This document shows, one piece after another, positions 2,866 to 5,908 of a DNA stretch of 40,346 nt. The notes below the pieces were generated by a model. That model ran no database searches, was not told the origin of the DNA, and saw only the letters and a program-made list of their open reading frames with translations. Within the stretch, counting starts at the first letter, position 1. Every line of letters begins with the position of its first letter. Position numbers and translations under genes: made by a program. Location: UHGV virus genome UHGV-0260710; one strand, 5' to 3'. Source of the stretch: a virus.

Positions 2866-3093
2866 TTAAATCATACTCATTAGGACGTATCCATCAGCGA
2901 TGTCACCAACGTCAGCAATGTGGACAACCTTACGCGCTACCTGTTGTCCAGTATACCCGTTGTCCCACTCATTCAGGATAAGCCAATCGCCAACCTTAAA
3001 GTCCCGGTCGTTAAGTCTCATCTCTGCTGTCTTTAGACCTAGCTGTACCGGACCAAAGTGCTGGCGGTGAATCTTCAGGTTGTGACTAGCCAT
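2866..3093 (-). CDS. Small ASCH/DUF3850-like protein inserted between tail tube genes
   Basis: 75-aa ORF; start overlaps gp11 stop (TAATG); pattern HxLKI...F..V..G.K..E.R.NDRDF.VGD.L.L.E.....YTG......V..I....D.....GYV.MS resembles DUF3850 as I remember it. Confidence 0.55.
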   Translation of the reverse strand: MASHNLKIHRQHFGPVQLGLKTAEMRLNDRDFKVGDWLILNEWDNGYTGQQVARKVVHIADVGDIADGYVLMSMI

Positions 3094-3659
3094 TAGTCCC
3101 TCCCGATGTCAGACATCATGTTGTAGCGACCAGTGTCCATCTCATACTCCATAACCTGCTGATAGAGTTCTGCTTCCTGCTCACGAAGGTATAGCTCTGA
3201 CTCTGGGCTACCGAAGAACTTAGCGTTGAACTCACGGCTAGCTTTAGTGACGATGTAGTCCCTGAAGACCACAGGCATCTCGGAGAATGGCTTCATCTCC
3301 ACAAGCTCTACCGTGATAGGGTCGGTGAAAGTGGTTGACTGAGTGGATAGGTCGTACAGGTATCCACCCATGTTGCTGTAGTAGCTGGTGGCCCCAGCAG
3401 TCATTACACGAAGGTATGATGGCAAGAATCGAATCCTATTGTCTTGGACATCAGGTGTCAGTACAGCAGCTTCGTTGATGTTAAAGTTCCAGCCTTTAGC
3501 TTGGACCTGACGATTGACACGATGTAGTATACGTTGAGCGTTAGAGACGTCAGCGTTCCCCTCGTCAAGCTGTAGGACTGCTGGTTCACCGATAGCAGCT
3601 AACATATCGTTGATGGCGTCTAAGTCATCGTTAGCATTCAGTGGAATGTATTGAGCCAT
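3093..3659 (-). CDS. gp11: Tail tubular protein A (gp11)
   Basis: 188 aa; alignable to T7 gp11 (e.g. INDMLAAIGEP.., RGW.FNI.E, FRDYIVTKASREFN); downstream of Tphi. Confidence 0.9.
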   Translation of the reverse strand: MAQYIPLNANDDLDAINDMLAAIGEPAVLQLDEGNADVSNAQRILHRVNRQVQAKGWNFNINEAAVLTPDVQDNRIRFLPSYLRVMTAGATSYYSNMGGYLYDLSTQSTTFTDPITVELVEMKPFSEMPVVFRDYIVTKASREFNAKFFGSPESELYLREQEAELYQQVMEYEMDTGRYNMMSDIGRD

Positions 3660-3679
3660 AAGTCTCCTCTCACTTTAAG

Positions 3680-3720
3680 CAAAAAACCCCTCAAGCACCC
3701 GAAGGCACCCAAGGGGTTTC
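3680..3720 (-). terminator. Tphi-like intrinsic terminator after capsid gene
   Basis: Minus strand AACCCCTTGGGTGCCTTCGGGTGCTTGAGGGGTTTTTTG: GC stem-loop plus T6 run, near-identical in layout to T7 Tphi. Confidence 0.75.
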
Positions 3721-3722
3721 AA

Positions 3723-4897
3723 TTAGTTGTTGGACTCAGCCAGTTTAGCGGCCCTGTTCGCAGCACGAGTACGCGCAGCTTTCTGTTGAGGAGTTAGGGT
3801 CTCCTCTTCAGGTGCAGCCGCTACTGTAGCGACGTTAGGTTGGCTAAAGGTGCTTACGCCGCTGGGCTGAAAACCAGTGCGCCAGCCGCTTCAGGACGCA
3901 GACCACCGTGACCCATAGCGTACTTACCGACAATCAGGTCACCCTGAGCATCGACGTCGCGGTCACGTTCCAGCGCCAAGTCACGCAGCTTAACGGTACC
4001 CACAGCAGAACGGTGAGAGAACAGACCAACAACGTTGTCCAGAGCAACTTTAACGTCACCAGTAGCAGTATCGGGGAAGGCGTGCTTCTGACCAGTCGCA
4101 ATAGTGATACCATCATCACCACGAGTTTCGCCAGCACCACCCTGAGTCAAGTGTGGAACTTCGACAACAACGAAGCCCATCACGTTACGGATGTTACCAG
4201 TCTCTGGGTCAATCAGCGCAGCATAGTTAGCAGCGTTAGGCATCAGAGCCGCGAGGATTGCAGAGTAGTTGTCCGGCGTGGTGTAGAAGTAACGGTCGCC
4301 AGCAGGAACGTAGTTGGAGGTCAGCTTCGCACGAGCAATGGTCAGTTGACCGATGATTGCTTCGCCCAGTTTAGCCGGGGTGTCGAGGTCAGCTTTCTTA
4401 CCAACTTCCAGTACGGACGCAGTACCCAGACCAGCGATGTTCTCATTGGATGCAGCTGGGAGGTTACACAGGATAGCCATTTCAGCAAGAACAGCACCAT
4501 CGGCAGCGATAGCCAGAGCTTCACCCAACTGGTTGGAATACTCGCCAGCCACGTCATAGTGGTTCATAGCGTCTTCAATGTCGAAAATCATCACATCGGC
4601 AGTCAGCAGACCATCAATGGTAATCACTTTCTCGGTATGTTTGATACCTTTACGTTTATCGGACAGTCGCTCGCCCGGAGCCAGATACACACCAGAGGTG
4701 CGACCCATGACCGGGAACTGAGCAGACTTACCGTTCTGAATGGTACGGACAATATGCTTGTCAGCAGTTACAGAGCGGCGAGTGAATGCGGTCAGGACTT
4801 CACCAGCAAATACCTTCAGGAACAACGCTAGAGCGTCGGAACTGGATTTGCCTTTACCTTGGTCTGTACCAATTTTCTGACCCGGAACGTTTGCCAT
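3723..4897 (-). CDS. gp10B: Predicted capsid 10B: -1 frameshift at GGTTTTC (plus 3869-3875) extends 10A by 48 codons to a TAA at 3723-3725
   Basis: Hand translation of the -1 frame after the slippery heptamer is open for 48 codons (QPSGVSTFSQPNVATVAAAPEEETLTPQQKAARTRAANRAAKLAESNN) and ends right at the Tphi stem. Confidence 0.55.
3854..4897 (-). CDS. gp10A: Major capsid protein 10A
   Basis: 347 aa (T7 10A is 345 aa); consensus phage promoter just upstream; terminator downstream. Confidence 0.95.
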   Translation of the reverse strand: MANVPGQKIGTDQGKGKSSSDALALFLKVFAGEVLTAFTRRSVTADKHIVRTIQNGKSAQFPVMGRTSGVYLAPGERLSDKRKGIKHTEKVITIDGLLTADVMIFDIEDAMNHYDVAGEYSNQLGEALAIAADGAVLAEMAILCNLPAASNENIAGLGTASVLEVGKKADLDTPAKLGEAIIGQLTIARAKLTSNYVPAGDRYFYTTPDNYSAILAALMPNAANYAALIDPETGNIRNVMGFVVVEVPHLTQGGAGETRGDDGITIATGQKHAFPDTATGDVKVALDNVVGLFSHRSAVGTVKLRDLALERDRDVDAQGDLIVGKYAMGHGGLRPEAAGALVFSPAA

Positions 4898-4999
4898 ATG
4901 ATAATTCTCCTATTCAATTGAAAGATAAAGTTTATTACTTACTGTATGCCCAATCCGTATGGACTGAAGTAATAGGGAAACCTTGAGTCTATCTCTTGG

Positions 5000-5022
5000 T
5001 CTCCCTATAGTGATAGTTTAGT
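5000..5022 (-). promoter_or_regulatory. Phage RNAP promoter (phi10-like), ACTAAACTATCACTATAGGGAGACC, +1 ~5005
   Basis: Best match to family consensus including GGGAGA initiation region; immediately upstream of capsid gene. Confidence 0.8.
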
Positions 5023-5023
5023 C

Positions 5024-5908
5024 CTACAGGCTTGAGGCAGCTACCTTAGCGCGAACTTCCATAGTGTACTTAGCGTCACGCAGGTAGCGCGGGTCACTCA
5101 TAGCCTTAATCATGTCAGCCTTGGAGCTGAATGCTTCGGTCTGAGGAGACTTAGGTGCTACCATAGGTTTAGCCTGAGTGGTGATGGTACGCTGAGGTTT
5201 AACTCCTACAGCTTTACCCAGAGTCTTGCCAGCCAGATTCAGCAGAGCTTTGGTAGTCGCAATGTCCTTACGAACGATAGCAGCTTCCAGTGCTTCACGA
5301 GTTGACGGGTCGGTTGACTCAAGGTGGGACAGGATGCGATTAAACTGTTCAGCTCCACCAGCGTAGCGAACCACACCAGCAGCATACTGTTCAGCCAGAG
5401 CTTCCTGACCACGGACAAACGAATCTACGAAACGCTTGGTGTAACCTGCTTCCTGCAACTTAGCGTAGGATGCGTCAGACAGCTTACCGTCCTTGGCGTA
5501 TTCAGCCTTGATAGCGGTAATTTCATCAGCAGTGACCTTGCCAGCTTCCACAGCAGAAGACACCATGTCGTCGAATGCAGCTTCGTTTTCATCCAGCGCG
5601 GTGACACTTTCGGTCAGCTCTTTCGGTGCATCACCCAGTTCGATGAACTCAGGCTGCTCACCATCGGTATCAGACTCTTCGTCATCGGACTCGTGGTCTT
5701 CTTCATCTTCAGTCTCTTCGACGTTCTCGTCTTCTTCGGTAGCCTCTTCGTTTTCGGCTTCCAGTTGCTTGAAGGTAATAGCGTCGTCGCCATCACGAAC
5801 AGCTACGTCCTGTTCAAGCATAGACTTCTGGTGTTCGTTCAGGTCCTCAACGGAACCAGTGATTGCATTAGAGCTAACGCCAAACTCGGCATAAACTGAT
5901 TGAGACAT
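5024..5908 (-). CDS. gp9: Scaffolding protein (gp9)
   Basis: 294 aa, acidic central region; alignable to T7 gp9 (YAEFGV.S, RDGDDAI, AGYTK.F.DS..RGQEAL.EQY, IKAMSDPRY). Confidence 0.9.
   Translation of the reverse strand: MSQSVYAEFGVSSNAITGSVEDLNEHQKSMLEQDVAVRDGDDAITFKQLEAENEEATEEDENVEETEDEEDHESDDEESDTDGEQPEFIELGDAPKELTESVTALDENEAAFDDMVSSAVEAGKVTADEITAIKAEYAKDGKLSDASYAKLQEAGYTKRFVDSFVRGQEALAEQYAAGVVRYAGGAEQFNRILSHLESTDPSTREALEAAIVRKDIATTKALLNLAGKTLGKAVGVKPQRTITTQAKPMVAPKSPQTEAFSSKADMIKAMSDPRYLRDAKYTMEVRAKVAASSL

Follow-up and report, generated by a model that had tools for sequence, protein, structure and literature searches.

A probable T7-type -1 frameshift at the capsid gene's end in a K1F-like phage

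The capsid locus

The window (the whole stretch of DNA that we analyzed, which is the 40,346 nucleotides of UHGV virus genome UHGV-0260710) is, judging from its sequence, a K1F-like phage of the genus Kayfunavirus, in the subfamily Studiervirinae of the T7 family. Across the 1.35-kb capsid region, megablast found 95-98% identity to the K1F-like phages ZH4, TM1, pO91, ST31, SH3, Penshu1, and Pipis, and Penshu1 is 96.6% identical. Over 25 kb, the nearest database records to this genome are just ~93-94% identical. All of the large open reading frames (ORFs) in the window are on the minus strand. The capsid region is flanked by the gene for the scaffolding protein (5024-5908) and by the genes for the tail tubular proteins. 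The capsid gene, its promoter, and its terminator are:

4998..5024, minus strand: promoter for the phage RNA polymerase, upstream of gene 10 and the equivalent of phi10; its sequence is GGACTAAACTATCACTATAGGGAGACC
3854..4897, minus strand: gene 10A, encoding the major capsid protein (347 aa, 36.3 kDa); the coordinates include the TAA
3681..3719, minus strand: Tphi-like intrinsic terminator, with a 17-bp G+C-rich hairpin and then a U-run (from a terminator scan and folding)

Residues 60-342 of 10A match the Gp10A-like family (Pfam PF21703, E=1.3e-105). The protein is 71% identical to 10A of T7, and the alignment stops exactly at ...AAGALVF, near the C-terminus. The promoter consensus, CT[AT]AACTATCACTATAGG, occurs in about 9 copies on the coding strand, and the gene 10 promoter, whose position corresponds to that of phi10 in T7, is among them. 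This copy is also the sole exact instance of CACTATAGGGAGA in the window. At the other end of the gene, the terminator (3719-3681) is visibly homologous in sequence to Tphi of T7, and it includes a CCCC tract at 3716-3713.

The slippery heptamer and the -1 frame

The initial annotation had given the last codons of 10A as CTG GTT TTC AGC CCA GCG GCG TAA, which the sequence confirms. These codons include the heptamer GGTTTTC, which sits four codons before the TAA (3856-3854) and opens onto the -1 frame:

3869..3875, minus strand: slippery heptamer G_GUU_UUC, with the Val codon at 3874-3872 and the Phe codon at 3871-3869
3723..3890, minus strand: whole -1 ORF, with 55 sense codons and a TAA at 3725-3723, and bounded on its upstream side by a TGA at 3893-3891
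3723..3869, minus strand: the part specific to 10B, with 48 codons (QPSGVSTFSQPNVATVAAAPEEETLTPQQKAARTRAANRAAKLAESNN) and the stop

On the minus strand, 3875..3723 translates to GFQPSGVSTFSQPNVATVAAAPEEETLTPQQKAARTRAANRAAKLAESNN and then the stop, with zero internal stops. The -1 frame continues for 48 codons past the Phe codon, as had been claimed from the heptamer to a stop at the stem of Tphi, and the Tphi-like hairpin begins just 3 nt past the TAA. Both other frames are closed across these 153 nt, with 3 stops in one and 5 in the other. The initial annotation also put the probability that the -1 frame would be open by chance at about 10%. We obtained similar values from the base composition of the genome (8.7-10.7%) and from 20,000 dinucleotide shuffles (9.3%), and a higher value (~22%) under the local A/C-rich composition. 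Because chance openness is ~9-22%, the openness of the -1 frame is, by itself, weak evidence.

How a ribosome could reach this frame is more constrained. The -1 ORF (3890..3723) contains no ATG, GTG, or TTG, and a listing of ORFs of at least 20 amino acids includes none in that frame. In the -1 frame, there is a TGA five codons 5' of the heptamer. With no start codon in the ORF and a stop codon ahead of the heptamer, entry is possible only from frame 0. The ten codons over which 10A and the -1 ORF overlap contain no shifty sequence besides the heptamer. G_GUU_UUC is not a perfect instance of X_XXY_YYZ: the first triplet is GGU rather than XXX, and re-pairing in the P site would be from GUU to GGU.

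Comparison to known frameshifts in capsid genes

The -1 frameshift in gene 10 of T7 was described by Condron, Atkins & Gesteland in 1991, as cited in PMC5009743 and PMC1635266. The T7 site has been written as G_GU U_UUC, a G_GU variant of X_XXY_YYZ (PMC5009743), or as GGTTTTC (PMC1635266). About 10% of translations shift there (PMC1635266, PMC4177731, PMC5009743), and the resulting 10B protein is made and is incorporated into virions (PMC1635266, PMC4177731).

The window and T7 share the identical GGTTTTC, in the same register and over homologous Val-Phe codons (...GALVF), 4-5 codons before the stop codon of 10A. The extensions of both have the motif EETLTPxQxAARTRAANKAxK and end just before homologous, CCCC-bearing Tphi terminators, and in both, the gene also has a flanking phi10-like promoter. 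By BLASTP, the extension in the window matches the 10B-specific tail of T7 with 23/36 identities (64%, E=2e-11). It is shorter than that of T7 (48 vs. 56 residues after the Phe) because it is without the ASVTSTE insert and the C-terminal ELAAATAEQ. The tail of 10A also differs, with SPAA in the window and KVE in T7. In every sequence-level respect, then, the feature in the window appears to be a 10A/10B frameshift of the T7 type.

The closer relatives K1F and Penshu1 differ from the window at this locus by strain-level nucleotide changes only. The extension in K1F has one difference in 48 amino acids (A to D), and the extension in Penshu1 is identical as a protein. The minor capsid protein of Penshu1 (QEG09807) is a joined -1 frameshift CDS of the same length, as stated in its genome announcement (PMC6753287). 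In K1F, gene10b was described as a -1 frameshift product, and attaching GFP to its 3' end gave stable fluorescent virions (PMC6277420). The gene10b locus of K1F has also been used to display adhesins on viable virions (PMC13370021).

Kvp1, a Kluyvera phage of a different genus, also shifts on a poly-U/Phe site: the shift is at TTTTCA, and mass spectrometry has proven the 42 kDa 10B product (PMC2579914). T3 and phiYeO3-12 likewise make a minor capsid protein by a -1 frameshift at the homologous end of the capsid gene. Unlike the window, T3 uses a lysyl site, C_CCA_AAG, which leads into a ~86-aa Big_2 Ig-like domain (PMC5009743, PMC2579914). The extensions of T3 and of one metagenomic relative (L037) match Pfam PF02368. 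In contrast, the extension in the window has no match in Pfam, to Ig-like domains or otherwise.

We considered two other types of frameshift for the window and rejected both. The T3 type is excluded by the absence of the Big_2 domain and of an A_AAG lysyl site, which does not occur in the last 10 codons of the window's 10A. The site is also not a dnaX-type cassette for -1 frameshifting: the heptamer is imperfect and there is no element upstream that resembles a Shine-Dalgarno sequence.

The slippery site and the extension in relatives

We compared 88 homologous loci: T7, T3, K1F, Penshu1, Pipis, PRF-SP2, 76 loci from IMG/VR (with capsid identities from 99% down to 33%), and six records of Studiervirinae from other genera. 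A scan of one metagenome gave another 8 contigs, which we used for sequence comparison only, as they are too few for covariation statistics.

If the locus has GTT TTC in frame near the end of 10A, then its -1 extension nearly always reaches 40 codons or more (37/38 loci), and all nine loci with the A_AAG site of T3 have extensions as well, of 86-177 codons; these loci are not phylogenetically independent. Where neither shifty motif is present, only 6 of 40 loci have a long -1 frame (at least 40 codons). In three of these six (L032, L033, and L078), the long frame visibly runs into the next gene, and in the other three (L072, L077, and L079), which are distant contigs, it is an arbitrary one. 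Among the relatives, the heptamer is kept in all 38 that have an extension of another type than the A_AAG one of T3. Four-fold degenerate positions near the heptamer vary freely within the GTT TTC group. Close relatives that do not have the extension (~75% capsid identity) have GTC TTC or ATC TTC at the homologous codons. Across these genomes, the slippery site and the extension are clearly linked, both in their joint presence and in their joint loss. Conservation of the heptamer and the extension in relatives, which the initial annotation had listed as a check, was seen in 37 of the 38 GTT TTC loci.

The initial annotation had also pointed to a closed -1 frame in close relatives as something that would count against a frameshift. 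Just 1 of the 38 loci has a closed frame: L010 has lost a single base, so that TAAG becomes TAG and the -1 frame stops after 11 codons. In L091, a nearly identical contig, the -1 frame is intact. This suggests that the closed frame in L010 is either an error in assembly or sequencing or an indication that the phage can do without the tail.

The extension also seems to have been conserved as a protein. A core peptide, LTPQQKAARTRAANKAxK, is common to Kayfunavirus, Teseptimavirus (T7), Berlinvirus (pO103, RN5i1, and BSP161), Przondovirus (KN3-1), Helsettvirus (fPS-9), and Citrobacter phage YSYH. Across five genera, this core is conserved despite ~30% nucleotide divergence. We calculated pN/pS for the 18 codons of the core from 8 non-redundant sequences: it was 0.16 in the -1 frame, and the two alternative frames had 3.1 and 1.6. 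The variable sites in the core were at codon positions 1, 2, and 3 of the -1 frame in 6, 5, and 16 cases, respectively. In other words, purifying selection that is specific to codon position acts in the -1 frame only. Furthermore, the insertions and deletions in the extension among relatives (L090 and L093) are multiples of three. Taken together, we consider the comparative evidence for a frameshift to be decisive.

Stimulatory elements

We found no convincing stimulatory structure near the heptamer in the window. One candidate was:

3828..3863, minus strand: candidate hairpin, weakly supported, 5 nt 3' of the heptamer; its 8-bp stem would pair AGCGGCGU (3863-3856) with ACGUCGCU (3835-3828)

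This hairpin is part of the minimum free energy (MFE) structure in some relatives (L003, L008, and L030) and not in the window. The pairing is kept through two variants of the arms (AGCGAUGU and AGCGACGU). On the other hand, the stem contains a mismatch in K1F, and the 3' arm is missing in L090 and L093. The predicted folding of the 79 nt after the heptamer was no better than that of shuffled sequences (z=+0.4). On these grounds, we leave the hairpin as a candidate only. The upstream sequence, GAAGCGGCTGGCGCACTG, contains no Shine-Dalgarno-like core (GGAG, GAGG, or AGGA), and a scan of 3500-5100 with Rfam gave no match at E<=1.

A longer segment of 201 nt does fold more stably than expected (z=-4.7), mostly due to the terminator hairpin. 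In MFE folds of the window, the heptamer pairs with the end of the extension or with the terminator. We also rejected this long-range pairing as a stimulator, because it would cover the heptamer, which has to be single-stranded during slippage. Moreover, the pairing is lost if 150 nt of upstream context is included, and the partner of the heptamer differs among relatives.

For T7, a CCCC tract within Tphi, >200 nt downstream of the slippery site, was reported to be necessary for full frameshifting (PMC5009743). The window has a CCCC tract in its Tphi-like terminator as well, at a distance from the heptamer of about 153 nt, versus >200 nt in T7.

The predicted 10B protein

On the minus strand, 10B would be encoded by join(4897..3869, 3869..3723), and its predicted size is 391 aa and 41.0 kDa, versus 36.3 kDa for 10A. 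This is a small correction to the ~42 kDa that was initially expected for the extended capsid protein. The predicted junction reads ...PEAAGALVF|QPSGVSTFSQPNVATVAAAPEEETLTPQQK, and the end of the tail includes AAKLAESNN. The extension matches a family of head proteins (PHROG 12582, E=5e-10). In a model of the tail from AlphaFold2, run on the single sequence, residues 1-28 are coil and residues 29-49 form a helix, with pLDDT of about 90. The tail of 10B is thus predicted to be a flexible linker of ~28 residues and a short basic helix (PQQKAARTRAANRAAKLAESN).

What the tail might do is a matter of speculation. As the combination of linker and basic helix (LTPxQKAARTRAANKAxK) is conserved in at least five genera of Studiervirinae, one could imagine that it binds nucleic acid, a component of the host envelope, or another virion protein. 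Similarly, the placement of the -1 stop just before Tphi could have a mechanistic link to the terminator-dependent stimulation in T7. Conservation and adjacency are all that these ideas draw on, and we think that they are probably wrong. If they were true, then the tail would have a specific function, and the placement of the stop would be tied to the unexplained terminator-dependent stimulation of frameshifting in T7.

Interpretation and alternatives

The initial annotation had proposed a programmed -1 frameshift like that of T7 10A/10B. This proposal is supported by what we computed here: the anatomy of the site, with a heptamer identical to that of T7; the homology of the tail to 10B of T7; purifying selection in the -1 frame; the absence of start codons; and the co-occurrence of the slippery site and the extension in 88 relatives. 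We estimate the probability that the site is the gene 10 programmed -1 ribosomal frameshift of a K1F-like (Kayfunavirus) phage of the T7 family at roughly 93%.

Most ribosomes on the capsid mRNA, which would run from phi10 to Tphi, would end at the TAA at 3856-3854 and yield the 347 amino acids of 10A. In a minority, the P site would hold tRNA-Val paired to GUU and the A site tRNA-Phe paired to UUC when the ribosome slips back by one base on G_GUU_UUC. The tRNAs would then re-pair, Val with GGU (imperfectly) and Phe with UUU. C3869 would be read twice, and decoding in the -1 frame would run for 48 codons to the TAA at 3725-3723, shortly ahead of the terminator. The resulting 10B protein would have the complete capsid fold and a C-terminal extension, and would join the capsid as a minor species with its tail exposed. 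From the experiments with T7, Kvp1, and K1F, we infer that the shift is probably ribosomal, that its efficiency could be ~10%, and that 10B probably enters the virion.

We considered three other explanations. The -1 frame might be open by chance or by mere descent, in which case this stretch would serve only as 3' UTR for the capsid mRNA, with no extended protein in meaningful amounts. Chance openness of 9-22% is not small, there is no strong local stimulatory structure and no Rfam match, and L010 seems to tolerate a closed frame. But neither chance nor descent would account for pN/pS of 0.16 in the -1 frame only, with most of the variation at third positions, or for a peptide motif that is kept in five genera at ~30% nucleotide divergence. 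Nor would they account for indels that are multiples of three, or for the loss of the heptamer together with the extension. Also, display on 10B of K1F works with a nearly identical sequence (PMC6277420). We consider this explanation to be very unlikely. It is even harder to believe that the extension is an independent small gene with its own start, and we give this almost no credence. Such genes have been annotated: g033 of fPS-9 and "10B" of BSP161 are separate CDSs in GenBank, and PHROG 12582 groups short "head proteins" of this kind. However, the -1 ORF in the window is without ATG, GTG, or TTG and has no ribosome-binding site ahead of it, and the homologous products in T7 and Kvp1 are proven fusions (PMC2579914, PMC5009743).

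The remaining alternative would yield the same 10B protein by another route. If the phage RNA polymerase slipped on the run of T, then some of the mRNAs would have a one-base deletion that brings the extension into frame. The site does have a homopolymeric run of four T, and sequence analysis can hardly distinguish the protein that would result from the product of ribosomal frameshifting. Yet it is established that tracts which give appreciable slippage by polymerase are far longer than four T (reviewed in PMC5009743). The heptamer is conserved in full, with the G and C that flank the T run, and in its codon register; this counts against slippage by the polymerase because the flanking bases matter for the re-pairing of tRNAs and not for the polymerase. 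Furthermore, PMC5009743 treats gene 10 of T7 as a case of ribosomal frameshifting, and the heptamer functions from plasmids (PMC1635266). Slippage during transcription strikes us as highly improbable, and we prefer a ribosomal frameshift.

Relevance for annotation

This type of frameshift is already known: it was described for T7 in 1991, and it is on record for K1F and Penshu1, which belong to the same genus as the phage in the window. Our own literature search for frameshifting in the minor capsid protein of Kayfunavirus gave no match. The finding adds no new principle, just one further member of the T7-type frameshifts. The comparative tables have some interest of their own, as they record the slippery site and the extension being gained and lost together, and they indicate that, among closely related phages, one and the same slippery site can lead into different C-terminal modules. 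The C-terminus of 10B is also a proven site for display on the capsid in Kayfunavirus.

The practical value lies mainly in annotation, because many relatives have the 10A ORF labelled as "minor capsid protein" or have the tail as a separate CDS. The genome in the window should carry a joined CDS for 10B, join(4897..3869, 3869..3723) on the minus strand. More broadly, many related records in GenBank are without the 10B join or have mislabelled genes.

C-terminal modules after the frameshift

The GGTTTTC heptamer near the end of the major capsid gene (10A) is common to the window and its close Kayfunavirus relatives, whose capsid proteins are 94-97% identical, but the C-terminal modules that follow the shift differ. 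In 14 related loci (L011, L015-L024, and L045-L047), the shift leads into a module of about 88 amino acids, which has no hit in Pfam and belongs to PHROG 7473 (unknown function). In another locus (L029), a shift at GGTTTTC leads into a Big_2 Ig-like domain. Because close relatives carry different modules at one site, this site acts as a conserved socket into which exchangeable capsid decorations fit. A composite extension is found in L014, where the first half of the -1 frame after 10A is the 88-amino-acid module and the second half (…PEWFFLLKVRMIMFYLLTALGLFVSFWAIILLTG…) is hydrophobic and unrelated. The module appears to have been joined to a small downstream membrane ORF through a deletion.

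The -1 frame is closed in L010 (IMGVR_UViG_2974615076_000001). Just 3' of the 10A stop codon, a 1-base deletion changes TAAGCACC to TAGCACC. With this change, the -1 frame is open for 11 codons only, and the conserved extension comes to lie in the +1 frame. A near-identical metagenome contig (L091) has an intact -1 frame. Either the deletion in L010 is a sequencing error, or it is a natural knockout of the 10B tail.

RNA structure 3' of the heptamer

In five loci from Berlinvirus and Helsettvirus (L012, L083, L084, L086, and L087), a nested structure begins 6 nt 3' of GGTTTTC, in which an outer stem (about 10 bp) surrounds a 9-bp hairpin. L086 preserves both stems with a different sequence (a U-A pair is changed to G-U, and the inner hairpin is wholly different). 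In these two genera, the nested structure may act as a genuine local stimulator; it is absent from the window.

Genes and promoters around the capsid locus

Some relatives have an extra small ORF (34-40 amino acids) between the terminator Tphi and gene 11, and one of these ORFs has a predicted transmembrane segment:

L001 (Penshu1), 1782-1904: extra small ORF between Tphi and gene 11
L002 (Pipis), 1757-1861: extra small ORF between Tphi and gene 11

The window, unlike Penshu1 and Pipis, has gene 11 directly after the terminator, with 3660-3680 lying between the two. The window's tail tubular genes, 11 (3093-3659) and 12 (499-2856), flank another small ORF, whose ATG overlaps the stop codon of gene 11 (TAATG):

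2866-3093, minus strand: 75-amino-acid ORF with a DUF3850/ASCH domain (PF12961, E = 2e-19; PHROG 986, "RNA-binding protein")

K1F lacks a gene at this position.

The phage-RNA-polymerase promoter consensus CT[AT]AACTATCACTATAGG has nine copies in the window:

33546, 27142, 24023, 20718, 18667, 8851, 6030, 5024, and 476 (5' ends), minus strand: consensus matches

Only the copy upstream of gene 10 continues with GGGAGACC, as does phi10 of T7.

Gene 10 is annotated inconsistently across PV714130 (Pipis), OM867676 (PRF-SP2; PRF-SP/STP-SP series), LT960606 (fPS-9), MG471392 (BSP161), and NC_007456 (K1F). Some of these GenBank records label the 347-amino-acid 10A ORF as "minor capsid protein," others leave out 10B, and others enter the tail as a free-standing CDS.
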